Below, one piece after another: positions 3,139-57,057 of a stretch of 64,000 nucleotides of DNA. Location of the stretch: contig OX597822.1 in NCBI GenBank assembly GCA_951406725.2, forward strand, positions 9,424,001 through 9,488,000, in the 5' to 3' direction. Position numbers and translations under genes: made by a program. Source of the DNA: Octopus vulgaris. Its lineage: Eukaryota. Below the pieces are notes generated by a model, which ran no database searches, had not been told where the DNA came from, and saw only the letters and a list, made by a program, of their open reading frames with translations. How positions within the stretch are numbered: position 1 is the stretch's first letter; the number at the start of each line of letters is the position of its first letter.

Positions 3139-3193
<55 letters not shown>

Positions 3194-3387
3194 TTAAAAT
3201 AACCACCTTGAGGGATACAAAATATCCAATGAATTACTGGTTTGTTACCTTGTATTTTGTTATGAATAGTAATAATCCTAAAATAATAGGTTTAAGTATA
3301 AATCTTCGTTTATAAATATACAAATTGAAATCCAGAAAATGGAGAAATAGCGTTAATATAATTTATTAACAGCAAAATTCCAATATG

Positions 3388-3474
3388 TTCACTTACAGCC
3401 GTTTCGATTTTGCCCAAAAGAATCTAATTCCAGTAATTAAAACATTTTATAAGACAAAATCTCGTCAGAGGAGT
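3388..3474 (-). ncRNA. Type I hammerhead-like motif in a (TA)n-flanked element (3193-3530)
   Basis: Minus strand reads CUGACGA-GAUUUUGUC...GGCAAAAUC-GAAAC-GGCU-GUA; 9-bp stem II, weak stem I. Confidence 0.7.
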
Positions 3475-3527
3475 AAAAAAGATAAATCGTTGGGTTATTA
3501 CATGTTATTCTTCCAAAACACCTCAAC

Positions 3528-3607
<80 letters not shown>

Positions 3608-5763: not shown

Positions 5764-6170
5764 GAGGAAAGAAAGAAAGTGGCAAAGTAAATGAGAGAAA
5801 TTAAGAAAGGAATACAGAGACAACGAAATGGGGAGAGAGAGAGAGAGAGAGTAAAGAGAAAAAGAGAGAGAAACTATACAGGCAAGAGAAAAGGTACATG
5901 ACGAAGCAAGACAAATATGAGGGAGAGAGAGATATATATTGATAAAGACAGAGAGATATATTGATAGAGAGATAGCGGGACAATTGATAAGGAGACTGGG
6001 ATATATTGATAGATTGAGGAAGAGAATGAGAGAGAGAGAGAGGAGGAGGGGGAGGAGGAGGAGGAGAGAAACAAAATAATAAGTTTTGGAGAAAGCCAAG
6101 ATATTCAAAGACTTTTTTTATACATTCTTCTATGAAATAGTTTTCAAACTGACAGTTGTCTTTGGACGTT

Positions 6171-6184
6171 GTTGCTATGGTAAC
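6171..6184. promoter_or_regulatory. RFX X-box (GTTGCTATGGTAAC)
   Basis: Matches the palindromic X-box consensus GTTNCYATGGNAAC; lies in non-repetitive sequence. Confidence 0.5.
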
Positions 6185-6662
6185 GGTTCTCCGTGAAGGC
6201 TACTAACCATTCTTTAAATGTAATCTTGTTTCAGCACACAAGCCGATGGTTTTACAATAGAAATTTCAAGCTCTTGTGGTTTCCTTTGCCGAATAGTTAA
6301 ATGTGGATCGTATTTCATCGGCGTCGGTGAGTTGCTCTTGTTTTACTTCAGTGTCTATCGTAACAGATTAAATTTTCCGAATACCTACATGTGTTGTATA
6401 CTCGAAATGAGACAACTTGGCGTAGCTGTTTGAGCGCAGGCGCTTCGGAGCAGCTGACTGGACGTTACAGTATGTTTTGGCAACAGTACCTTTTGGCACT
6501 GGAAGCAAATATATATATGCACATGCGCAATAATATACACATACAGATAAAAAAAAGTGAGAGGGAGAGTGAAGAAGAGAGAAAGAGAATGAGAGGAGAA
6601 GAGAGACACGTTACAGTTTATTAATTGAACTAGAATGACATAAACACTTTTCCTCTCCTCAG

Positions 6663-6862
6663 ACACATGAAGAGAAATGTGCAGAAACGGATAAGCATTT
6701 GTGCAGGTCGTTCCGCAAAATATTGCAGATCCGTCTTTCTCGGACTACGAGAGACAACCGGACCAAACTGAACAGACCAGCTGTTAAGAAACTCGCGAAA
6801 TCATTCGAAGCCACTACATGTCTGTTAACACTATCAGAGGCGTAGCCGGGTCCTAAAGTTAG
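6663..6862 (+). other. Candidate non-coding or 5'UTR exon
   Basis: Polypyrimidine acceptor TTTTCCTCTCCTCAG and donor AG|GTGAGA; all three frames contain stops. Confidence 0.3.
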
Positions 6863-6923
6863 GTGAGAGAGCACAAAATAGGAAGTGCCGTAATAATACG
6901 TACCAAACAATTTTTAACTCATA

Positions 6924-7223
6924 TCTTTATATATAAAACTAAAGTTGTGTGTGTGTCTGTCTACTCCGATTTAGATTCCTAACTACTTCCACATTTTGCT
7001 GTGCAGTTTAACCAAAAGCGGGTATCTTATAGTCGTGATTCATATCGAGCCCTTCTGGGTAATAGCACGCGTCTACGATGAGTCTACGATTTAAAAAAAA
7101 TTACCATCATTTTTCCGCATTTTTAATGATTTTTGCTCGGATTATATAAGGGAAGTAACTCTCTAAAAATGCTTATATAGTTATTTCCTTACAAACCCGA
7201 GCAGCGCCGGGCGATACTGCTAG
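6924..7223 (+). mobile_element. Non-autonomous Helitron-like element, copy 1
   Basis: A|TC 5' start, subterminal hairpin CCCGAGCAGCGCCGGG, CTAG|T 3' end; further copies at 48502 and 57827. Confidence 0.85.
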
Positions 7224-7299
7224 TCTCTTATAAAATAAATGCGGCCTTTTTAAAGCCTAGCCAGGCTCATGTTGCTTATTTTGAGTATATATATATATT

Positions 7300-7377
<78 letters not shown>

Positions 7378-7438
7378 AGGGGGTATACACACACAAGTAG
7401 TAATGGATCCTCGACGATGAGGAATGTTGCTTGATCAA

Positions 7439-7578
7439 CTGAATATCCCCGAGAACTACGTTAAGGGTACACGTGTCTGTGGAGTGCTCAGCCACTTACA
7501 CGTTAATTTCACGAGCAGGCTGTTCCGTTGATCGGATCAACTGGAACCCTCGTCGTCGTAACCGACGGAGTGCTTCCA
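7439..7578 (+). mobile_element. SINE family C 3' fragment
   Basis: Matches the 3' part of 62583-62939 (...GTAACCGACGGAGTGCTTCCA). Confidence 0.8.
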
Positions 7579-7796
7579 CTTAACCATTTGTCCGTTCTGC
7601 GAATACAGATAATAATAATAATAATAATAATATATTAAATGGTCACGATGTGGTGAGTTTTGATAAATGCTGATTAACTATAAAACATTTACGTCCCTTA
7701 TATTTAGTGGAACTACAGTAAAAGTAAGGGGCGACTAAGAAATTGCAGGTAAATCTTTGTATTTTGGTCTTATGTCTGCGTATATTTGTTTGTGTG

Positions 7797-8101
7797 GAGG
7801 CGCAATGGCCCAGTGGTAAAGGCAGCGGACTCGCGGTCGGAGGATTGCAGTTTCGATTCTCAGACCGAGTGTTGTGTGTGTTTTTTGAGCGAAAACACCT
7901 AAAGTTCCACGAGGCTCCGGCAGGGATGGGGGGGGAGGCGACCCCTGTTGTACTCTTTCGCCCCAACTTTCTCTCACTCTTTCTTCCTGTTTCTTGAGTA
8001 ACGCTGCGATGGACTGGCGTCCCGTCCAGCTGGGGAGAACACATACGCCATAGAAACCGGGAAACCGGGCCCATGAGCCTGGCTAAGCTTGAAAAGGGCG
8101 C
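7797..8101 (+). mobile_element. tRNA-derived SINE family C, variant with alternative 3' half
   Basis: A box TGGCCCAGTGG and B-box-like GTTTCGATTC; 3' half GCGATGGACTGGCGTCCCGTCCAG resembles the V-SINE domain. Confidence 0.8.
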
Positions 8102-8774
8102 AAGAAGAAGATATTTGTTTGGATGTGTGTGCATTTGTTTAGGTACGTGTCGTTGTGTGTGTGTGTGTGTGTGTATTTGTGTGTATGTGTGTGTGGTATT
8201 TATGTTGTTCAGAGTGATGATTGGTTAAAATTTTCTGATCTCTCTTGCGTGGTGGCTAATACGAAGGTAGGCGTTCAATTTGAAAGATGACTGGGGTGGG
8301 ATTGGGTCTAGTTTGTTGTTTGAAGTCAGGTTGCTAGGTTATAATTAGTAGATTAAAGTTATTGCATTGTTATTTCTGGTGAATGACTTTAAAAAAAGCG
8401 GAAAAAGTAATTTTTCTGACTGAAGATAACATAAGATTTTATGAATAATTCAATGCTGTACCAAATTATCTTCTTTGACAGAAATATTTTAGAATTTAAT
8501 TTTCTATATGTTAGTATACTAGTACGCAATGATGAAGAGACAGCATCCCTATTTGGATTGTATTTTTAATTGAAGAAAAACAGTTAAATGGCTTTTTCAC
8601 GAGATCGAAAACTGGAAGTACAGTAAACTTTGAAACGTTCTGAGTTTTTGTTAAAAACAATTTTGTCGTTATTTTTTCTTGTATTTTGAAATATATTTCA
8701 AAAGCCTTGATGGAGTGGGTGTTAATCTGATTACTGCCCTGAAAATTATACAGCTAATTTAGTATAAAATGGTT

Positions 8775-9668
8775 CCAAATTTTGGTACATGGTCAGCGAC
8801 TTTGGGGGAGTGGGTAAGACGATTACATCGATCCTTGTGTACAACTGGTACTTATTTTATCGACCCTGAAAGAAAGGAAGGCAAAGACGACTTCGGCGGA
8901 ATTTGAACTCTGAACGTAAAGACGGACGAAATACCTATTTCTTTACTACCCACAAGGGGCCAAACACAGAGGGGACTAACAAGGACAGACAAACGGATTA
9001 AGTCGATTATATCAACCCCAGTGCGTAACTGGTTCTTATTTAATCGACCTCGAAATGATGAAAAGCAAAGTCGATTCCGGCGGCATTTTGAACTAAGTAC
9101 ATGAAGACAGATGAAATACCTATTTCTTTACTACCCACAAGGGGCTAAACACAGAGAGGACAAACAAGGACAGACAAACGGATTAAGTTGATTATATCGA
9201 CCCCTGTACGTAACTGGTACTTATTTAGTCGACCCCGAAAGGATGAAAGGCAAAATCGACCTCGGTGGAATTTGAGCTCAGAACGTAGCGGCAGACGAAA
9301 TACCTATTTCTTTACTACCCACAAGGGGCTAAACACAGAGAGGACAAACAAGGACAAACAAACGGATTAAGTCGATTACATCGACCCTAGTGCGTAACTG
9401 GTACTTAATTTATCGACCCTGGAAGGATGAAAGGCAAAGTCGACCTCGGCGGAATTTGAACTCAGAACGTAACTTTTTCTACTATAGGCACAAGACCTGA
9501 TATTTTGGGGGAAGGGGTAAGTCGATCACATCGACCCCAGTACTCAACTGGTACTTAATTTATCGACCTCGAAAGGATGAAAGGCAAAGTCGACCTCAGC
9601 AGAATTTGAACTCAGAACGTAACGGCAGACGAATTACGGCGTGCTAACATTTCTGCCAGCTTGCCGTA
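8775..9668 (-). repeat. Tandem array of SINE family B-derived units (about 185 bp)
   Basis: Repeated GTCGATTATATCGACCCC...GAAAGGATGAAAGGCAAAGTCGAC...ACCCACAAGGGGCTAAACACAGAG, three full units plus partials. Confidence 0.9.
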
Positions 9669-9744
9669 AAAGGTGAAATAAAATGAAGGAAAACAGAAAC
9701 CACAACACAAGTGCTCTCTCGCACTCACGTTGCCACACGATCAC

Positions 9745-9890
9745 ATTCACTTACTCACACTTTCACTCATTCACTCACTCTCTTACTCACTCACTCACAC
9801 GTTCATTCATTCACTCACTCTCTTACTCACTCACTCACACGTTCATTCATTCACTCACTCTCTTACTCACTCATTCACTTACACGCATTC
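9745..9890. repeat. About 40-bp (CACT/CATT)-based minisatellite
   Basis: CTCACTCACTCACACGTTCATTCATTCACTCACTCTCTTA repeated. Confidence 0.85.
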
Positions 9891-10619
9891 CAGAGAATAC
9901 GCGTAAATGCAACAACGAAAGCTTGGAGAACTGGAATATCAAGGCCATGTCATTGGTGAAGGGGCTTATGGCGAGGAAAGGACTTTAGCAAACAAATTAA
10001 TTGATTGATTGAAGGATTAATCAAGTAATCGATTAGATAATTAGTTTATTGGTTAATTAGTTAACTAATTATGATAAAAAGAGGTGAAATGAAACCAGGG
10101 CGTATTTTGTTGTTTTTATTTTTGTTTTTTGCTTTTTCTTTTTGTTATTGTTTTCTGGGGGTTTTTTTTTGGCTTTTGTTTTTTGATTTTTTGGGCAAAA
10201 TAATTCTCCTAAAAAACAACAGGTAAATAATTTGTCTAATTTCGGCACAAGGTGGACATTTTGAGGAGCGGAAGTTAGATGATACCAAAGATTCCAGTAC
10301 TTGACAGAAACTTTATTTTATCGACCCAAGAAGATTGAAAGAACAAGTTGACCTTGGTAGGGTTTGAATGTAGAATGTACAGAGCCAGAAGAAATACCGT
10401 CAGGTACTTTTATCCGACGCTCTACCAATCCCTCGCTCTCTTTATTTCTAATGTAAGCCCAAGGTCACCAATTTTGAGAGGTGAAGAGATTGGTTGATTG
10501 TATTGACGGGTATTATATTTTATCAACCATCTAGTGATGAGCGGCAAAGCTGACCGTGGTTGAACGAATAACATTAAGGCATTTTTCCCAACTTTGCGTT
10601 TTTTATTTTGAGGTTGTCT

Positions 10620-11240
10620 TGTTCCAAAAGTCATTCACTCGCGGCTCGTCGAAGATGGAAACTGCACTAAGACTCCAAGATATGTTTAAGTGGTTGACTA
10701 AGCTGATTCAGCAATATTCGAGACATGAACTTATCATCTGATGATAATAAAGAAATTTCTTTGGAGATTCCATAAACCACATACTCATCCCATTTTATGG
10801 GAGTCGCAATATCGATGATTCGAAAGTCACTAGAAACAAATCGTTTTTCCCATACTCCTAGAATCAGTGAAAACTGATGAGCTTTCAAGGAACTTCCTCC
10901 TTCGTTTTATAATTATGCAACAACGGAATCATGATCAAGAGTATTGTTCCTTGCGATATGGAGTTGCTGATGTCCACAGCTGCTAAGAAAGGATGGACAT
11001 GATGATCATCAGAGGCAGTTGGTAGTCGGTTCAGTAGTTTGTTGAAGTGTTCAGTCCAACTGTTCGGAATAGTTTCGTCACCTATCAAAATACTGGTGCA
11101 TTAAGCTTTCATCGGGGCTGTTACAGTGTTTGATAGGTTCACAAGTGGCACGGATAACTAAGTAGAAGCCTCATACTTGACGTTGGTCAGCAGAGCTTTG
11201 GAGATCATTGACCTTCACTTGTAATCGTTTTCAGTTATAC
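10620..11240 (-). mobile_element. Decayed RTE-clade LINE fragment (region upstream of RT)
   Basis: WTEHFNKLLNR and W...SDF...ISLLSSDDKFMSRILLNQL resemble the RTE YRGISLLS..K..SRILLNRL region. Confidence 0.65.
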
Positions 11241-11377
11241 AGATTTGTATTTAAACTTCCGTTTTATGATATCGATAACCGTGTTTCTTGATTGTGGAAC
11301 ATATATACATACATACATATATATATATATAAGAGAAATATGTTTTAAAAAAATAGAAACTACACGTGGAAAAGATA

Positions 11378-11746
<369 letters not shown>

Positions 11747-12009
11747 ATACATAAACGTGTGTGTGTGTGTGTATGCACGTAGACAAACATGTATGTATGT
11801 TTGTATGTATTAGGGCAACGGCACCGAATGGTTGCTACAGCTTCAACCAACACTGCTTATACTACTCCAAAATTTCAAAACACTACGGCAACAACATACA
11901 CCATTTATAAAACATAGATTATACACCGCCAACGCAAAGGCCAACATCAACTATGGCCCAACTCCAACATATTCTGTCTATCCCACACTGTTAATATATT
12001 CTGCTTCTT

Positions 12010-12510
12010 AAGGCGGCGAGCTGGCAGAATCGTTACCACGCTGGGCAAAAGGCTTAGCGACATTTCATCCATCTTTACGTTCTGAGTTCAAATACCACCG
12101 AGGTTGACCTTGCCTTTCATCCTTTTGGGGTTGAGAAAATAAGTGCCAGATGAGCACTGGGATTGATACAATTGACTTACCCGCCACTTCACCAAAATTG
12201 TTGGTCTTCTGGCAAAATTTGAAACCAATATTACCGGAGATCAATTATTTTATTGTTGATATCCAGACAAAATTTGAAACCAGTTTAGATTAATAATGCG
12301 ACAAGCTAGAAGAACCGTTAGCACGCCGGGCAAAATTCTTTGCGGTATTTCGTTCATCTCTACGTTCTAAGTTCAAATTCCGTCGAAGTTGACTTTGCTT
12401 TTCATCCTTTCGGGGTTGATAAAATGAAATACTAGTTGAGCACTGGAATCGATGCAATCGTTTTACCCACTTCCTTGAAATTGCTGGCCTTGTGCCAAAA
12501 TTTGAAACCA
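12010..12510 (+). mobile_element. Two degenerate SINE family B copies
   Basis: GGCGGCGAGCTGGCAGAA head, GAGTTCAAAT B box, CTTTCATCCTTT.GGGGT.GA core. Confidence 0.8.
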
Positions 12511-12828
12511 GTATATGAGTATACTACTAACATCAGAACTATAATATACGCTGAAACTCCAGTCGACAATTTTCGGTGGGAAATGGCAGTGAATCTAGCA
12601 GAACGCTGCCAGAATGCTACAATTCACGAAGTGCAGCCTTCTAGACTCATATATGTGAGTGTGTGAGCGTGTGTTTGTATTATCTGTAAGTGCTATACAT
12701 ATATCCAATTGATCTAATTTGAAATTCCAAAGTAAAATGATGAATTACCCATTATTTTGTAAATTGGTGCGCTAAAAGATGTAAATGGCAATATCAATGG
12801 CGTCAGAATCAGTTGGTGTCACTGACTA

Positions 12829-12867
<39 letters not shown>

Positions 12868-12911
12868 ACGTGCTTATATGTATGTGTGTATATATATGTG
12901 TGTGTGTTATA

Positions 12912-13140
12912 AGGGCGGCGAGCTGGCAGAAACGTTAGCGTGCCGGGCAAAGTGCCTAGCCGTATTTCGTCTGTCGTTACATTCTGAGTTCAAATTCCGC
13001 CGAGGTCGACTTTGCTTTTCATCCTTTCGGGGTCGATAAATTAAGTACCAGTTTCGCACTGGGGTCGATGTAATCGACTTAATCCCTTTGTCTGTCTTTG
13101 TTTGTCCCCTCTGTGTGTAGCCCCTTGTGGGTAGTAAAAA
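12912..13140 (+). mobile_element. tRNA-derived SINE family B, full length
   Basis: GGCGGCGAGCTGGCAGAAACGTTAG...GAGTTCAAATTCC...TTTCATCCTTTCGGGGTCGATAAATTAAGTACCAG; close to 57058-57285. Confidence 0.9.
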
Positions 13141-13878
13141 AATATATATGTGTGTTTATGTATATTTATATATGTGTGTAAATGTGCGTGCGTGCATACA
13201 CGGGTTATATTTCATTATTTCATGTCATCAGGAAATTACGTGAGTCAAGAAACAGATAAATTGACATAAATGACGGCTCGCATTGATATCCCGAGAAAAA
13301 TAGAAAAGCATTTACGAACAATTGTAATAAAAAATATTTACTTTCTTACATCACCAGAATGTCACACCCTTCAGCAGGCGGTGGGAGAATCCAGTAATTT
13401 ACCCCTACATCGATATTTGATTGGTTCTTATTTCATAGAAACCAGATAAATAAAAAGGCAAAATGAAAACCGGACGAGGTTTGTATCCATAATATAAAAA
13501 GAAGCAATTTTAAGCAACTAAATAGTGATCCCTGATATAGGCACAGGGTCTCAGATTGTGAGAGATGACTCAGGGGATTGTACCGAGCCCAATTCTATGA
13601 GCGTTGGTCAAAAAAATCCCTTGCAATATTTGTTCTGATTTTGTGCACTCTCAGGGCAAAGTCTGCGAGGGTTCAATTCGTTTTTCATCCTTCCGGGATC
13701 GATAAAATAAAATACTAGCCAAGCATTGGGATGACTTTCTCTCGCAATTAGTTGTGCTAAGTGGTAAATGTAGAGAAGCACACACAATGTCTCTTCGCTC
13801 CAAGATAACTGCTTCCATATTATTCATACTAGTGAGACAAGTGGTTACCAAGAATCTGACAAAACATGGCATGCAATG

Positions 13879-13943
<65 letters not shown>

Positions 13944-14074
13944 CGCATGTGTCTCGAATGGGCTAGAGTATTTCTATTTTGGATGTATTTGGGGTACTTA
14001 ATTGTGCTCATGACTTAGTGTTTGCTTCCTCCATGGGTACGAGTAAGTATCTCATTTATTTCTTTTGCCACATG

Positions 14075-14132
14075 TATCATTGACGAAGAGAGGGTTGTTA
14101 TAAGCTAACCCTGAAATCGATCCGATATGGTA
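14075..14132 (+). ncRNA. Variant type I hammerhead-like motif in a (TA)n-flanked element (13940-14280)
   Basis: UAUCA-UUGACGA-(AGAG)-AGGGUUG...UAACCCU-GAAA-UCG-AUC-CGA-UA-UGGUA. All three stems pair; C3U change and a 4-nt insert. Confidence 0.6.
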
Positions 14133-14278
14133 ATAATGGAATTTTTTAGAAATTTCTGTCCACTTTTTTTCGAGTAGCGTGCGTATTGTGTGAAAAGAAT
14201 TTTATGGTTAACGGACAATATGTCCAATTTTTCGGCATATTTGGCATTAGAAATTTTTTCGTTTGCCCTTATTTATGA

Positions 14279-14320
<42 letters not shown>

Positions 14321-14373
14321 CATGTATGTATGTGTGTGTTTGTATGTATAAATATGTATGTATATATGTATAT

Positions 14374-14424
<51 letters not shown>

Positions 14425-15494
14425 AAATAAGCAACAAGAATATTCAGATGCAGTAGGATCGTTTCATGCGATTCCATTTAATTGAACAAGGCAATCCTTT
14501 CATTACCACCTGCAACACAGCAGTCTGTGTCGGATAGTATTTTTGTCTTGAACTGTTGTTGTTTCTCCACCATTCTTTTCACAACAGTGTCCAGCTGTCC
14601 CTGAAGACGCATGCGCTTCGCTTTCTGCCCTTCCTTCTACTCAATCAGTTTACCATCTTGGTTTTGTAATACTTTCATGGTTGTAGCCAGAGACACCTCT
14701 TCTTTCGCTGCTTGCCTCCTTGTACGTACTCTTTCAGAGTCCATAGCGAATAACTAGCTCACTGCAGCAATGAATATCTCACTTCTGACACTAGTTGTTA
14801 CGCCGCACGTGCGGCATCCTGAAACCACCTACAACACAACAGTCTGTGTCCGATAGCTCAGAAGACTGAGTAGGCGAAACTCAGCAAACCAACTTGCTTA
14901 GAGCAAAGAAGCAGTAGTCAAAGAAATGAGAAGTGTTGAAAATAGCAAACAAAACCGTTGAGTATAACCAACATAAAAGAAATTTACTTAAGAGGCCAAT
15001 AACATTTATGGAATAAATAAACAGTTCCTTAGAGAGTTTTTAGAGAGTTCTTACATTCGCCTTTGAAATGTGTAGAATACTTTTGGTGAGCTCTTCTTTT
15101 ATTCACTAATCTAATGATTTGTCTTCTATCGTTTTCCTTCAGTTTTTTTCTTTTGGTTTTCGACTGAATTCATGTTACTTCCGAATTCGCGGTACCATTC
15201 CGCCTTCTTTACGTTGGCAAGTTCACCCTACTTTCGCAGTCAGTTCGAAAGCCCACTGTTTGCATTAACTGCCGAAACCAGCTTCACACTCCACACCAAA
15301 TACTGTGTCAACTGTTCCATACGAAAATTTCCCGGCACCACCGACTGCATGGCACTGACTATTACATAAAACTGTTCAAATCGGCTTCCAGCACTTCACA
15401 CATCAACGTCGCACATCGTCTTCCAGTCCGAACTTCGAACCACCTATTCACATTGGCTTCCAGTGCGAATTAATTCGCCACGTGGGCAATAGTA

Positions 15495-16782
15495 TCAGGT
15501 GATCCCATAAGTTCTGTCCGATTTTACCTTTTTTAAAATTGAATGGAATTTAATAGTATTTTAGAATGTCTAATGGAATTAAAAATTATTTTTATGCATT
15601 TGGGTACATTTAAACTAATTAAATATTATTTTACAGAATAATATAATTAAAATTTCTTTGATTAAAACCCTTTCTAACATGGACGTATCCAAAGTGCATT
15701 TGAGGCACATAATGCTTTATGAGTACAAAAAAGGAGACACTGCAGCTGAGGGGACTCGAAACATACACTCAGTTTATGGGGAAGAATGCTTGAATGAAAG
15801 AACTTGCAGAAGATGGTTTGCAAAATTCAGAAGTGGAGATTTCAGCCTTGAAAATGAAGATCGAACAGGACGTCCAGTTGAGTTTGATGATAAGTTCCTT
15901 GAGGCATTACTTGAAGAAAATCCTGCATTATCAGTTGAAGAATTGGCAATAAAGCTTAGTTCAAACCACACAACTGTTCATCGTCATCTTCAACAACTTG
16001 AAAAGGTTTGTAAACTTAAAAAATAGGTGCCTCATGAATTGTCCGAAAGCAACCGCAAATCCTGAGGTGACATCTGCTCTTCTCTCCATTCCCGTGAACT
16101 CATTTCGCCCTTTTTGGATTGACTTGTGACAGGTGACGAAAAATGGATCGTCTATCGAAATGTTAAACGTCGTAAACAATGGCTCGGTAAGAAGGAAAAA
16201 GTTCAACCACAACCGAGAAGGGAACTTCATGGGAAAAAAGTTTCTTCTATCTATCTGGTCGGATTGCAAAGGAGTAGTTCACTTTGAATCGTTACTACCT
16301 AATGCAACAATCAAGGCTCAAGTCTACTGTCAGCAATTAGAGCGTTTGAATCAAGCTTTGAAGGAAGAAAGTCCCGCGTTAGTGAATCGAAAAGGAGTGA
16401 TATTTCATCAGGACAATGCGCGACTCCACACTGCAAAGATCACATCACAGAAGATCGAAAAGCTTGGTTGGGAAAAATTCCTCAGCTATCTTATTCTCCC
16501 GACCTTGCTCCTTCAGATTACCATTTGTTTCGTAGTTTACAGAATCATTTGGGGGACATAACTTTCGCAAGCCGGGAGGAGGTCAAAACTGACATTTCAG
16601 AGTTCTTCGCTTTGAAACCAAAAGAATTTTACATTGATGGGATTAAAAAGCTCGTAAATAGATGGAAGGAAGTCATAGATAATCAGGGAATGTATATTGA
16701 TGATTAAATTTCAATTAAATATAACAATTGATCACTTGTTTTCTTTATTCAAAATTCGGACAGAACTTATGGGATGACTTGA
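15495..16782 (+). mobile_element. Full-length mariner (DD34D) DNA transposon
   Basis: About 27-bp TIRs TCAGGTGATCCCATAAGTTCTGTCCGA / TCGGACAGAACTTATGGGATGACTTGA, with TA on both sides. Confidence 0.95.
15679..16707 (+). pseudogene. Mariner transposase with stops and frameshifts
   Basis: HTH region RRWFAKFRSGDFSL..EDRTGRP, (W>stop)VPHEL, VTGDEKW, HQDNAR, YSPDLAPSDY spread over ORFs 15658, 16133 and 16468. Confidence 0.95.
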
Positions 16783-17129
16783 TATTTATACTTCACCCAT
16801 AGTGTAAAAGCACGCCTACTTTTTAAACAGTCACGTGATCACAAAGATGTGGTTTTCGTCTTCGCTTGCAAAACCAGAGAGCGGTCTTCTAATTTGCGTC
16901 GTACGAAAGAGAAATTATCTGAATGTAATTTTTTCGTTCATAATATTTGTGTGTGCGTGTGTGTGTGTGTGCACGTGTACACATACATATGTGTGAATGT
17001 GTGTGCGCACGAGATTAGTGAGTGTGTGTGTGCGTATATACACATAATGTGTTATGTGCGCATGTATGTATGTATGCATCTATCTTTCTATGTTTTGTTC
17101 TGTTTTTAGTTATTCAAACTCCTCCTCTG

Positions 17130-17640
17130 AACAATGAGCTGGTTTCTATTAAAGATACAAAACTCTGTCATTAGAATTCAGATACAACAAAAAACAGTGT
17201 CACGTTTTAAACTTGGGAAAAATCTTCATACCTCTACGGCTCCACTTACAGATTGTATTTTTAATATGCAAATTAGTTGGTTAATTTCTTCTTCTGAAAA
17301 CACCTTGCTTATCCAGATTGTCTCTCAGGCATTTACTCATAAACTAAGTGCACCAATTATTGTCATAGATTGGAATTTATGATCGGGATACAGAAGTCGG
17401 AGGTTTCGAAGCAGTTGTCCATAGTTATCCTCTTTCTCTTTGATTTTCAAAGAGATATTCATATCAGCAAGACAGCTGACCCCTATAATGGGTCATGTCT
17501 TTTTTTCATGCCCCAAACAACAATATCTGGCTTGTTATGTTTACACTTGACATATGGGTTGATAGAAATGTTCCCCCAGTACTTCTTGTGCGGATGCTTG
17601 TGTCTGTATTCAATAAGAAGGGGATTTCAGGAAGTCTCTT
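17130..17640 (-). mobile_element. Decayed RLE-type non-LTR retrotransposon 3' end
   Basis: Manual minus-strand translation KHNKPDIVVW...IIGVSCLADMNISLKIKEKEDNYGQLL...IIGAL matches a PD-(D/E)xK restriction-like endonuclease. Confidence 0.7.
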
Positions 17641-17700
17641 TTTCGTATGTATGTATGTATGTATGTATGTATGTTTGTATGCATGTATTATGTATGTATG

Positions 17701-17734
<34 letters not shown>

Positions 17735-18600
17735 TGTATGTATGTATGTATGTATGTATGTATGTATGTATGTATGTTTGTATGCATGTATGTATGTATG
17801 TATGTATGTATGTATGTGTGAATGCATGCATGCATGCATGCATGTATGTATGTATGTATGTATGTATGTATGTATGTATGTATGTATGTATGTATGTATG
17901 TATGTATGTATGTATGTATGTAGCAGAGTGTCTAGGTCGGCCAGTAGAATCATTCGGTATTGTAGGTCTTTATATCCGGATAGTCAGACCAGTCTTCGAG
18001 GGTTGACTAGTGGTCGGTAGGGAATGACTCGTGAATTACCTCCAGGCCTTAGCTGCCATATGAGACCTCATCAGCGATGGGAAGACCAAATCTGATATGC
18101 TTCTTAGAATGAAATGGGTCTATGAAATAGTTTTACTCTGACACGAGTCGACTCTCACGTATATAACTGAAAAAGAAACCAGATCGCAAATCAGAGTTCT
18201 TCGCAGATCCAAAATCACGATGATCGCCAAGAGCAGTCAGCTTCTACCATTTGTAGTCTCTGTTCTACAAAAATGTATTCAGAGTAGGCCTATTTGACCA
18301 TGCCAGGAATGCTACTCTCACCCATCGCTCAGCTAATTTACTTCTCCCTCTTCATGCCAAGTAGTATTTGTAAACGCTGGCTAGAAAGAAAAGAAATGTG
18401 CGATTAGTACACTACCTCTTTCACTATACCCAAACGAAAAGTACCTGACATTTTTATTAATAGGAGAGTGTGGGACAATTTCTACGGCCGATTCGAGTGA
18501 TAGTCGGGTACTTACATCACGAGGAGACAAGTCTTCAACAGAAGTCCATAAGTCAGCGATAACATAAAACCGAACGAGTGGGTGCAGAACGCTTTCGTCT

Positions 18601-18666
<66 letters not shown>

Positions 18667-19249
18667 GTCTCTCTCTCTCTCTCCTATCACTGCATGCATT
18701 TGGGATCGACTTCATGATCCTATAGGTTATCTTAAAACTATATCACTCGCTCAGCGACTATTCAAGGATCCGAGGCCTAACGCCCTCCGAAACCGACTAC
18801 GGACATTTTCATTCCCACCCAGAGCTTCATGCAGAACATCATGTCTGCTACAAAATTCAAAGATTGATATCCTCGCCGATCACATTACTCAATTGTTAGA
18901 ACACTGCACGCATTTGAGAGGCTTCACTTCTGATACCAGTTTCCCGACTACTGTTAGTGCTTCACCCAGTGAAGACGAGCGAAAGAAACACGGTCACAGA
19001 TACTGCAAGCACAAGGCATACCAGTGCAGCGTCAGCCAAGGTATGTCGGAGCCTGAATGCAGATGCTGTTGGCAGCAAATAGACCATCTTACGAGTGTGG
19101 AATTTTCTAAATTACTTTGTTGATTTATAGGTTGGGAAAAGAGAAATTGTCTTGGACCCCTGGAATTACGCAACACTCACGCGCGCACATACACGCACAC
19201 ATACGTTTAAACATATACATATATACATACATAGAAACACACACATTGT

Positions 19250-37952: not shown

Positions 37953-38069
37953 ACATATAAGAGGGATGACCACTAACTGGACATCTATTATGCTAGAAGT
38001 CAACCTTCTATAGAAGGTTGACTTCTAGCATAATGGATGTCCACTTAGTGGTCATCCCCTCTTATATGT
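37953..38069. repeat. Near-perfect zero-spacer palindrome (about 117 bp)
   Basis: ACATATAAGAGGGATGACCACTAA...AACCTTCTA|TAGAAGGTT...TTAGTGGTCATCCCCTCTTATATGT. Confidence 0.95.
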
Positions 38070-38190
38070 GTGTAATATAATTTTTCTGATTCTTCAGATT
38101 TTTCTATATGCTAGACCATTGGTTTTAAATTGATACTAACCAAATTAATATTCAATTTTTCACCCTTATTATTTAAAATACATACATACG

Positions 38191-38310: not shown

Positions 38311-38387
38311 TTAACTGAAGAAGATATTGTGTACTGGATGACATCCTTTTTTATTTATTGCCTAGTTAACTGGAACGTACGTATTAA
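38311..38387 (+). ncRNA. Degenerate type I hammerhead in a (TA)n-flanked 160-bp segment
   Basis: UUAA-CUGAAGA-AG...CU-GGAAC-GUAC-GUA-UUAA; GAAA changed to GGAA. Confidence 0.5.
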
Positions 38388-51581: not shown

Positions 51582-52341
51582 AAATTATGTAATCGTTTTT
51601 TATTTCGTATATTTTCATTTGTCTTGCTTTTTTTTACATTTTGTTTTTTTTTTACTGATATTTTTCTTGAGAACACATTCTTCGTGATAATGGCGATTTG
51701 ATGTCTATGTTTAGCATATTGGCTGTCCACTTTTAGTGGTCAGTCCTCTAAATTTTGTATGTGAAACAATTTTTAATCTTCGGATTTTTAAAAAAAATGT
51801 GCTAAGCCACTGGTTTTAATTGATTAATATCAATTTCTACCCTTATTTAATTTTATATATATGTATATAATATATATATATATATATATATGGTCATACT
51901 GCTGCTGCTAGGACTGCCACAACTTAACCGCTACAACCAATAAGCTGCTGCAACCCCAACCACCACCACGGTTACTACTACTAAAACCAACAATCACTAC
52001 TGCTGCTACCATTCCATTGGAACACAAGGAAACAAAAAAAACAAGCACGCGGTTCCTTTTGATACCAGCAAGAAACAATAATGAACTCCTTTACTACACT
52101 CAACTTGAAATTTATAGCTATTATACCTACTACCGACAAAACACCACCACATGGATTCTATTGAGACCAGTAAGAAACGATTATGAACTTTTCTATTACA
52201 CTTTTCTTTTTATAATATTTTTGATAAGGTTCGTTTTTTCAAGAACCGAAACATGTAAAATTCATAAGAAAATTAAAATTTATCTAATATAGTGGCGTTT
52301 TCAAACTTCTTTTTTACAAATATATACCCACTCGTATACGA

Positions 52342-52350
52342 TCTACTCCT

Positions 52351-52400
<50 letters not shown>

Positions 52401-54177: not shown

Positions 54178-54252
<75 letters not shown>

Positions 54253-54254
<2 letters not shown>

Positions 54255-54775
54255 AATATATAAGGAATGCCCATAATAGGACATTCAACTCACTAGAAAA
54301 AGCAGCCAAACTCCAAACCACTAATAGTTGTAATTCTGAAATGGAAAGAAATAGAAACGTTTACCATTTCCCTCTCTGGACTATGCATAGTTTCGGCGAA
54401 CTTTAGTAAATAAATTAATTAGATTGAATTCATTTACAACTGGCGTGCCTCATCAGCAGAGAAGCCAAGGACTAAATATATATTCACGAGGCAATAATAA
54501 GCATGCCTAGAATCTATATGCCCTAAATTTTCAAAATCCACCACACTCGCGCGGTTATCTCAGCAGCAAATATAAACTGCCGATTTAATTTCAAAATTAG
54601 CCAAAAAATCATTAATCAATAAATTTAAGGGCAGCAAAAAATTCTAGAAAAATTCTCCGCTACCAGCAGTCAAGTGAGAAAGAAAAGATAGTCAATAGAC
54701 TATATAATATACATTCAAATATATAAGGAATACCCATAATAGGACATTCAACTCACTAGAAAGAGCAGCCAAACT
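54253..54775 (-). mobile_element. Direct-repeat-flanked non-coding hammerhead element (retrozyme/PLE-like)
   Basis: About 60-bp direct repeats at 54253-54312 and 54716-54775; internal canonical HHR. Confidence 0.8.
54371..54464 (-). ncRNA. Type I hammerhead ribozyme, canonical core
   Basis: CUUCUCUG-CUGAUGA-GGC...GCC-GAAA-CUAUGCAUAG-UC|CAGAGAGG; 8-bp stem I, palindromic stem III, GUC site. Confidence 0.88.
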
Positions 54776-54776
54776 A

Positions 54777-55210
54777 AAAGAAGGTTTATGTTCCTATAAT
54801 CTGTGTTAATTCTGTAACCCTTTAAAATGGAAGATAAGAAAGTTCATTTTCGCCACTTGATGATTTAGGAACCAGACAAAAATTGCTGCAGCTCGGCTGG
54901 GATGTGTTATTCCACCCTCCATATTCACCAGATATTGCTCCTTCGGATTTCCCATTATTCAGCACTCTGCAGAATAGTCTTAAGGGTAAAAATTTTAATT
55001 CCTTGGATGACGTAACAAGATAACTTGATGAATTCTTTGCCATGAAACCACCTCAATTCTAGGAAGATGGTATTTTCAAGTTAAAGGAAAGATGGAGACG
55101 CATTGTGCAACAAAATGGTTCATATTTGGTTGATTAAAAATGTAATGGCAAGTATTTATTGACCTTTTTCTTTCCTTTAAAAATCGGCACGAACTTTCCG
55201 GACTACCAAA
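54777..55210 (+). mobile_element. Internally deleted mariner, copy 2 (left end missing)
   Basis: Same deletion junction and right TIR as 29167-29731. Confidence 0.9.
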
Positions 55211-55473: not shown

Positions 55474-55517
<44 letters not shown>

Positions 55518-55524
<7 letters not shown>

Positions 55525-56190
55525 CCACTCTCTTATATTTATTTTGTAAAAATATTATAATATATTATAAAATATTATAATAATCCAGGTTTCTCGGAGC
55601 ACTAGGCCACTTGGTGTTGAATAGATATACTATTAAATTAGTATCTAATTCTCTCACCCTTATTAATTAATTATAATTATGCTGCATTTATTTCTAAATG
55701 CTGTATTTGTTTTCCGTGAAAGTTTGGCGCGCTGTTGGTTGGGGCATTTGAATTATAACGTCGGATGTAATCAATTGAACCACACGCGTATTTATCGTTA
55801 TGGTAAAATCTGGCGTGTGATTGAGTGGATTTCATCCAGATAGTTTTGGCTGACGAGCTACAAGTGGATTTTTTTGTAAGTAAAATTACATTTAATTCAT
55901 TAATAGCGAAACAATTGTCCCAAAATAATCTGTATTTTTGTTATTTTTTATTTGCCCTGTCCGTGTGAGCTAACAATCGTACTGACTTTCATGGGAAACA
56001 TGTATTTTTGTGGTTGAAACCTTTTGGATTAACTGGTGCTAGAGTGAGCCATATAGTGACCACTCTCTTATATTTATTTTGTAAAAATATTATAATAATC
56101 CAGGTTTCTCGGAGCACTAGGCCACTTGGTGTTGAATAGATATACTATTAAATTAGTATCTAATTCTCTCACCCTTATTAATTAATTATA
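55518..56190 (+). mobile_element. Direct-repeat-flanked non-coding hammerhead element (retrozyme/PLE-like) in (TA)n
   Basis: About 135-155-bp direct repeats at 55518-55674 and 56053-56190; internal canonical HHR. Confidence 0.85.
55839..55930 (+). ncRNA. Type I hammerhead ribozyme, canonical core
   Basis: GAUAGUUUUGG-CUGACGA-GCUA...UAGC-GAAA-CAAUUG-UC|CCAAAAUAAUC; 10 of 11 pairs in stem I; cleavage predicted after 55919. Confidence 0.9.
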
Positions 56191-57057
56191 TATATATATG
56201 ACGGGCTTCTTTCAGTTTCTGCCTGCCGAATCCACTCACAAGGCTTTGGTGGGCCTGAGGCTAAAGTAGAAGATACTTGCCCAATATACCACGCAGTGGG
56301 ACTGAACCCAAGACCATGTGGTGGTAAGAAAGCTTCTAACCACACACCCACGCTTGCGCGTATACACACTCACACACACACATATACATATATGTGTGTG
56401 TGTGTGTATACATGTATATAGTATGGTCTCGGATGTAGAGGTCAAACACAAAAACACGCACGCACATACATACATAGATACACACATACATACGTACAAA
56501 TATACGTGTGTGTGTGTGTGTGTGTGTTTTCTTCCTCTTCTTCATTTAGAGTAAATTTTGACCGGCCGCCTATTTGGTAACAAGATTGTGAAGAAAAGCA
56601 ACTTGTCTTAACCATCACTCTTTAACTCTTAAGAAGGTCTTTGTAGATCTTTAGTCTCAAATATCTTGATCATTTGTAGTGTGTGGATTAAGGATTTGCG
56701 TTATCTCCCCCACTATCCTAAGTTCAGTCATACTTTGCTCCAGACGGATTTGTATGTATGCTGTTGCTCCAGTGATAATGAGTATGAAGCTGAAAGTTTA
56801 TCATCGGAACTGGATTCGCAAACTCCTTATCAATGATCCATAGATGTCTTCTTCCTGTTGTATTTTTCTAACCAGACTGATGTCGAGAGGGCAACGGATT
56901 TCCACAACAGAACATTTTGTTTCTTTTGTGGTATCACACAATATCTAACTTGGTGGATGTTTTAATTTCTAAGTTCAATGTGTGTGTGTGTGTATGTATG
57001 TATGTATGCATGTGTATGTGTGCGTGTGCACTCATATATCTATGGGTGTGTTTTAAA

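Follow-up and report, generated by a model that had tools for sequence, protein, structure and literature searches.

Results

The window, a stretch of 64,000 nucleotides of the Octopus vulgaris genome (GCA_951406725.2, contig OX597822.1, forward strand positions 9,424,001 to 9,488,000), contains at 55518-56190 a short hammerhead-bearing repeat, unit 2, whose parts and relatives are compiled in Table 1; monomer numbering starts with position 1 at 55518 throughout. The initial annotation had described unit 2 as a retrozyme-like unit with a period of 515-535 nt, in which direct repeats, the left one carrying a 20-nt internal duplication, flank a unique core within (TA)n. The TA tract is found on both flanks and the direct repeats are real: 55516-55562 and 56051-56097 match over 47 nt (100% identity, spacing 535), and 55569-55680 and 56084-56195 over 112 nt (98%, spacing 515). 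Both spacings were thus measured, but the monomer is 535 nt long and the shorter spacing goes back to a private deletion, since the right repeat of the window copy alone has lost 20 nt. Likewise, the duplication is present in the left repeat but is the norm of the family (57 of 58 read-through instances); because a sister family lacks it, it is a true duplication, ancestral and family-wide. What did not hold is the unique core between LTR-like repeats. The core has 1,240 candidate matches, of which the 40 scored are 99-100% identical, and the window copy consists of 1.30 units of a tandem monomer, whose relatives form arms of up to 12.7 units. Unit 2 is a partial tandem and not an LTR unit.

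Two fixed ends delimit the tail of the monomer, end B at monomer 28, after CUCUUAUAUUUAUUUU, and end A at monomer 158, after CCCUUAUUAAUUAAUUAUA. The TA tract is already present in the empty copies of the host repeat that surrounds the element (nine seen), and since the junctions of the family lie inside (TA)n, target-site duplications are not readable there. No open reading frame of at least 150 amino acids overlaps the element, and 167 of the 435 unmasked columns of the family are G or C.

Table 1. Features of unit 2 and of related elements in the window (positions of the window; a dot marks features given without a strand)
Feature	Position	Strand	Remarks
Single-arm insertion	55518..56190	+	1.30 units of 535-nt monomer, 5'-truncated; 3' end is fixed site A
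One full monomer	55518..56052	+	predicted strongly self-paired circle
130-nt tail, end B to end A	55546..55675	+	contains 20-nt duplication and terminal hairpin
Right direct repeat	56051..56190	+	partial second unit, stops at site A, lacks 20-nt duplication
(TA)n target, left	55490..55517	.	ATAT common to tract and 5' junction of element
(TA)n target, right	56191..56199	.	tract part of host repeat, also in empty copies
Type I hammerhead	55837..55932	+	descriptor scan and fold
Stem I	55837-55849/55920-55932	+	one A-A mismatch
CUGACGA	55850-55856	+	
Extended helix II domain	55857-55907	+	51 nt
GAAA	55908-55911	+	
Stem III, palindromic ACAAUUGU	55911-55918	+	predicted cut after C55919
17-bp predicted helix, 5' strand	55708..55724	+	pairs with 55984-56000; long rod, A>G changes cluster nearby
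17-bp predicted helix, 3' strand	55984..56000	+	fold prediction
Unit 1	54250..54775	-	member of a distinct, older hammerhead family with a 463-nt monomer (1.16 units); two-end pattern as in unit 2; tail about 95-105 nt
Penelope-like 3' end	51900-52370	+	related to family with 781-aa protein; hammerhead of the minimal U3-A8 kind near 52221; runs into (TA)n at the long-type end
Sister-family element	37955..38180 (approx.)	.	short two-armed insertion; ends homologous to B and A; tail about 110 nt
Old hammerhead element	about 3190-3530	-	another long-helix-II family; 56-nt domain II

The descriptor scan recovered the intact type I hammerhead that had been proposed for unit 2, with CUGACGA at 55850, GCUA/UAGC, GAAACAAUUGUC and a predicted cut after 55919, and elsewhere in the window it gave a single convincing hit, which lies in unit 1 (54456, minus strand). 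The region 55835-55935 folds with z = -5.9, none of 200 shuffled sequences being equally stable, and the supposed long loop II is predicted to be an extended helix of 4+8+5 bp. Rfam gave no hammerhead match for 55760-56000 at E <= 10, and over the window only microsatellite-driven miRNA-type matches among the 150 listed of 176. Rfam thus overlooks hammerheads with a long helix II in this genome, and counts of families of this type are probably too low. When folded as a circle the 535-nt monomer is predicted to reach -151 kcal/mol (z = -5.5, 40 shuffles) with 67% of it paired, and the antisense circle -109 kcal/mol (z = -4.2). The ribozyme of the monomer is predicted to prefer an inactive fold with mispaired core nucleotides (-28.3 kcal/mol) to the active one (-22.7 kcal/mol), a difference of 5.6 kcal/mol, whereas the palindrome of stem III could form a duplex of 8 bp. 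Both predictions fit the known double-hammerhead control.

The catalytic core is constant across insertions but for N7 and a U4>C change in three insertions. Variants found in at least three insertions break 5/37 predicted pairs (10.5 expected), as compared to 32/81 for singletons (p = 0.005). The earlier suggestion of selection on structure is supported by this sparing of predicted pairs by recurrent variants, and also by the sister family, whose stems I and II have changed and yet are paired (GAUCACA/UGUGAUU versus GUUUUGG/CCAAAAU of unit 2 in stem I, and GUUGC/GCAAC versus GCUA/UAGC in stem II).

Paralogues of unit 2 form a large family in the same genome. Exact-motif searches returned 410 matches for the 5' side of the hammerhead, 1,107 for a motif near end B and 2,742 for a 22-mer near end A, and none for the reversed-motif controls. 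Roughly a thousand TA microsatellites hold copies, which are spread over many contigs; the figure of about 1,100 insertions is an extrapolation from the first 100 of the 2,742 matches, which fall in 40 insertions. The family is real, young and abundant.

From 130 loci we assembled a set of 102 complete and distinct insertions, which is partly biased in that many loci were picked for an intact core. It comprises 55 head-to-head two-armed insertions, 46 single-arm insertions (one an internal fragment) and one nested insertion. Locus L187 has a short two-part family insertion nested within another family copy. Among the 158 3' ends tallied, 68 lie at monomer 158 and 48 at monomer 28, and 151/156 run into (TA)4 or longer. 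A distance of 130 nt separates the two sites. Every one of the 55 head-to-head insertions combines an A-type with a B-type end, AA and BB pairs being absent (53 of the pairs fall within set bins, which the other two narrowly miss with ends at 12 and 145). Short arms hidden in the flanks had complementary ends as well (5/5). The window copy would be an A-primed arm whose partner is absent. The 5' ends are uniformly distributed, with 7/156 near the ribozyme cut site versus 4.7 expected (p = 0.19); a pile-up at the cut site that was seen in the first loci was gone in the larger set. Arms longer than two units account for 30/156. At the B ends of L123, L160 and L184 a terminal TATTTT-like word is repeated before (TA)n, as if the reverse transcriptase had slipped and restarted.

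The two arms of one insertion differ at 48 of 13,308 positions (0.36%) versus a mean of 1.9% between insertions (42 insertions with at least 100 shared columns, AT-rich columns masked), which points to a single template for both arms. Neither arm is nested in the other in 18/55 pairs, the 5' ends of the arms lie within 15 nt of each other in 5/55 (3.2 expected), and head-to-head junctions are palindromic no more often than chance. The non-nested arms and the lack of an excess of palindromic junctions argue against fold-back copying. In the long arrays of L155, L206 and L223, variants recur in some units and are absent in others. The changes of L155 at hammerhead positions 7-8 follow a two-unit rhythm, but a dimer circle, considered for the 1,070-nt periodicity of this locus, was discarded as the opposite arm lacks those variants.

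The contigs that match the family in X1, X2, X6, X7, X11 and X12 were guessed to be RNA (0/22 runs are recorded as such), and those in X15 and X19 are of unassigned kind. On the hammerhead strand, A>G exceeds T>C changes in X2 (9:2), X7 (6:4), X6 (5:2) and X11 (7:2), the ratios being 0:1 in X1, 0:0 in X12, 2:2 in X15 and 2:1 in X19. Six of the sites (55973, 55981, 56004, 56018, 56019 and 56053) carry G in X2 and/or X7; at these sites G reaches at most 0.06% in X15 and is present in 0-1 of the 94-97 insertions of the genome that cover them. Four other A>G sites are also genomic polymorphisms. RNA editing of the transcripts of the family is likely from this pattern. Among recurrent genomic variants A>G affects 12/117 A columns versus 4/151 U columns for T>C (p = 0.017, direction unpolarised), an excess as expected if edits were retro-copied, with a bias of the reverse transcriptase as an alternative. 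A closed 565-nt contig in X1 (535+30) and joints in X11 and X12 that go back 535 nt fit a circle or a tandem equally well.

No open reading frame for a reverse transcriptase with GIY-YIG endonuclease occurs in the scanned copies of the unit 2 family, which is non-autonomous. The same genome contains at least three young families of Penelope-like elements with intact reading frames of 753, 775 and 781 amino acids for a reverse transcriptase with a C-terminal GIY-YIG domain; the linker, CxxxxCxxC, is that of Neptune/Nematis elements. Copies of these families terminate in (TA)n at one of two sites, whose spacing is about 48, 33 and 35 nt, respectively, and the two-armed copies read for the first two have complementary ends (7/7 and 6/6). 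Identical intact frames (781, 753 and 775 amino acids) in L065, L148, L259 and many other places suggest ongoing activity. The unit of the 781-aa family is 4.7 kb long, with further coding-like sequence upstream. Where readable, the hammerheads of the autonomous families are minimal U3-A8 variants, a type that has been described (PMC4209133).

The autonomous partner with shared termini that the first reading of the locus had called for was not found among the families compared. BLAST of the unit against the three young and several older families yielded only AT-rich matches or separate insertions, and at most a CCUUA-like word before several ends is common to unit 2 and the autonomous families. 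The search combined GIY-YIG family and protein searches and covered the best 150 of 6,136-18,706 candidate matches each; informative names were absent among the 120 listed of 653 homologues. None of 60 loci scanned for frames of at least 220 amino acids has a Penelope frame joined to the repeat, the frame of L191 ending about 3 kb off, and mapping of the 102 insertions met no case in which the repeat gives way to a body with a reading frame. Among the families examined, no match of the 3' end or pseudo-LTR to a named autonomous family was seen. Two candidate links were dropped: a 57-nt match of the end of unit 1 beside an old Penelope copy (L033), which occurs at one locus only and after an AT run, and a tail fragment beside a Penelope copy (L114), which is flanked by (TA)n and was treated as a separate insertion.

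Unit 1 belongs to a family with 85-96% identity and 1,985 candidates. In each of its 12 clear two-armed copies, a count that omits two ambiguous loci, one end and no more is long; the second lies at the short site in 8/12 and at different AT-rich places in 4/12. Between units 1 and 2, at 54800-55210, lies a fragment with an HPPYSPD-type motif that we take to be a mariner-like transposase, and the 5' end of unit 1 adjoins it. The sister family (2,780 candidates) can be aligned to unit 2 over the stretch that begins at the hammerhead and stops at end A, and comparison of the two shows that the tail of unit 2 was lengthened from about 110 to 130 nt with both ends unmoved. As for the further relics named in the initial annotation, that at 3388 has an intact core and a stem II of 10 bp, its stem I being broken; those at 14075, 33726 and 36951 failed a relaxed scan and resemble mutated cores by eye only; and that at 38311 has no GAAA box, the real relative being the adjoining sister-family element. 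The proposed radiation of microsatellite-dwelling ribozyme retroelements is supported, in that at least six further families of long-helix-II hammerheads were encountered. Domains II of 39-60 nt with differing stem III palindromes occur in L074 (3289), L170 (41), L206 (240), L076 (4967) and L038 (44). As such families were met by chance in flanks, the genome likely holds many retrozyme families. The window also contains, at 8815-9472, a 184-nt SINE-like repeat in 3.6 head-to-tail copies.

Discussion

We believe, with a probability of about 80%, that the unit 2 family is a non-coding hammerhead repeat, a non-LTR retrozyme, which is likely copied into (TA)n in trans by a Penelope-like reverse transcriptase-endonuclease; a single RNA would offer each of the two cut strands a separate site for priming. 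Tandem copies would be transcribed on the hammerhead strand, as suggested by clustered A>G changes in the putative RNA contigs. The multimers would then likely cleave themselves through double hammerheads formed via the palindrome of stem III, and the released monomer would be protected by the predicted trapping of its lone ribozyme in the inactive fold. A host ligase would likely close the monomers to circles, a step demonstrated for the retrozymes of mussel and axolotl. The pattern of the insertions, together with the biochemistry of a Penelope-like protein (PMC11167929), suggests that the Penelope protein cleaves (TA)n on both strands, one of which is then extended into cDNA from site A and the other from site B. 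The reverse transcriptase crosses the ribozyme cut site repeatedly, as the arrays of up to 12.7 units seen in the DNA show, and the two cDNAs would be joined head to head or one of them lost. As the cut site is crossed many times, cleaved linear monomers are not the main template.

Within the Penelope model we lean somewhat towards circles rather than multimers as the template. A circle would explain long arrays with shared variants, and the 565-nt contig in X1 is compatible with it, though equally with a tandem. Then again, variants present in only some units of long arrays are not explained by a monomer circle and possibly reflect multimer templates, later exchange or assembly error. The alternative in which the same twin priming uses the uncleaved linear multimer transcribed from genomic arrays, with the hammerhead as a passenger or regulator and no circles in mobilisation, has the steps of transcription, target cleavage and priming, and array synthesis and joining in common with the one we prefer. 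It is a tenable but less probable account. The uniform 5' ends, the mosaic variants within long arrays and the predicted inactive fold of the monomer agree with it, as does the finding that the Poseidon element PAc, the one Penelope tested in vitro, had no need of cleavage and used mainly uncleaved RNA as its template (PMC11167929), which also speaks against our preferred reading. Repeated 5' truncation should however shrink the arrays of such an element, and yet nearly a fifth of the arms exceed two units. Diagnostic variants shared throughout an insertion, by every unit and by either arm, the conserved core and the predicted folding of the whole monomer into a closed rod also count against it.

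Copying of a circle or multimer in trans has its own difficulties. No autonomous element with the same termini was found among the loci of the families examined, published non-autonomous Penelope elements generally resemble the 3' end of their partner (10.1101/2021.04.23.441226), the 130-nt tail exceeds the customary 30-40 nt three- to fourfold, and of nine frog retrozyme dimers tested only one cleaved (bioRxiv 10.64898/2026.07.22.740005). Could the repeat then be the pseudo-LTR of an autonomous Penelope family yet to be found, and its copies truncated or internally deleted products? Frog retrozymes match Penelope pseudo-LTRs in 24 of 57 families according to the same preprint, and our search covered three young families and the best-scoring candidates. 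We nonetheless regard this origin as improbable, given that neither the ORF-scanned loci nor the mapped insertions join the repeat to a Penelope frame or body and that the autonomous families read carry minimal hammerheads rather than the long-helix type. An origin of the inverted arms by fold-back self-priming or DNA rearrangement, with arrays growing as satellite DNA without an RNA step, is more doubtful still and in our view very unlikely. Self-priming has been proposed for palindromic Penelope junctions (PMC3846280) and the mosaic variants fit unequal exchange in long arrays; such growth may have contributed late to the longest of them. It does not readily accommodate arms that are not nested and whose 5' ends rarely coincide, ends that are complementary in every head-to-head pair, and copies dispersed over many contigs.

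Returning to mobilisation in trans, a bolder version can be formulated, which we consider possible but less likely than not: a circular hammerhead RNA would hijack a dimer of the Penelope reverse transcriptase-endonuclease through homology limited to a short CCUUAU/AU-rich cue, its two start sites, with 130 nt between them, would each serve one target strand only, copying would go on for up to 13 rounds, and A-to-I edits made by ADAR would be written into the germ line and steer the evolution of the element. On the selection of the start sites the families themselves are informative. The spacing varies (from 110 to 130 nt by duplication, and 33-48 nt in the autonomous families) and neither site has moved, so that the sites are likely specified by the sequence or structure around them and not by the distance between them.

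Comparison with known systems

The family was first put forward as a candidate for an undescribed system, which overstates the case, since animal non-LTR retrozymes and their proposed dependence on Penelope elements are in print (PMC7229834; bioRxiv 10.64898/2026.07.22.740005), and the Penelope pattern of tail and inverted arm is known too (10.1101/2021.04.23.441226; PMC11167929; PMC3846280). The name retrozyme-like applies in so far as this is a hammerhead tandem repeat of the animal non-LTR kind, but the LTR-like layout does not. We classify it as an animal non-LTR retrozyme and a non-autonomous Penelope-like element. A report of this family or of cephalopod retrozymes did not turn up in the literature covered, though Repbase, Dfam or subscription journals may hold the family; the main text of an octopus repeat annotation (PMC13282606) contains none of the words hammerhead, ribozyme and retrozyme. 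As far as the literature found goes, the family departs from the known kind by its long helix II, its long tail and a clear two-site footprint, and these features are new.

With the animal non-LTR retrozymes, as these reports describe them, unit 2 shares non-coding AT-rich tandems with one type I hammerhead per unit (the window copy has one full unit and other copies have many), a self-paired predicted circle, autonomous Penelope-like elements alongside and, as in coral, a 20-nt indel. Its unit of 535 nt lies above the 170-400 nt and outside the 150-450 nt given in PMC7229834 but within the 51-972 nt of the frog preprint (bioRxiv 10.64898/2026.07.22.740005). It differs from the published descriptions in its 51-nt helix II domain and in the predicted blocking of the monomer ribozyme, and further in that its ends map to two Penelope-type sites and that no sequence match to a pseudo-LTR was seen among the families examined. 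The plant LTR retrozymes are likewise hammerhead-bearing non-autonomous retroelements, with circular RNA in their case, but carry a type III hammerhead in true LTRs, PBS and PPT and a 4-bp target-site duplication, whereas unit 2 has a type I hammerhead in a partial tandem.

The likeness to endonuclease-containing Penelope-like elements of the Neptune/Nematis type extends to partial tandems, the head-to-head 5'-truncated inverted arm, a tail on one end only, the preference for (TA)n and the presence of a hammerhead (10.1101/2021.04.23.441226; PMC3846280). Craig et al. (10.1101/2021.04.23.441226) report partial tandems, an inverted 5'-truncated copy and a tail of 30-40 bp on one end. Different from these elements, unit 2 has no reading frame, a tail of 130 nt and a canonical C3-G8 core with long stems in place of a minimal hammerhead. 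MRC1 and other non-autonomous Chlamys elements, in the account of Craig et al., resemble the 3' end of their partner and belong to a clade mostly without hammerheads, unlike the family described here. Frangieh et al. 2024 (PMC11167929) showed for a Poseidon protein that each of the two target strands is cut and then extended, and that two internal starts delimit the tail. PAc, the Poseidon element of Anolis, thus shares with unit 2 two internal start sites, cutting and extension of both strands and an AT-rich target; in vitro, however, it is reported to show no strand preference between its sites, whereas the arms of unit 2 use one site each (55/55) and the sites are far apart.

Mobilisation of animal retrozymes by Penelope elements has so far been argued from co-occurrence and similarity to pseudo-LTRs. 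Here the insertions bear the Penelope footprint, with two start sites used one per arm and, as the near-identity of the arms suggests, one template. A short RNA and three intact candidate enzymes in one genome make twin priming, the use of circles and the role of the hammerhead testable with the existing in vitro assay.
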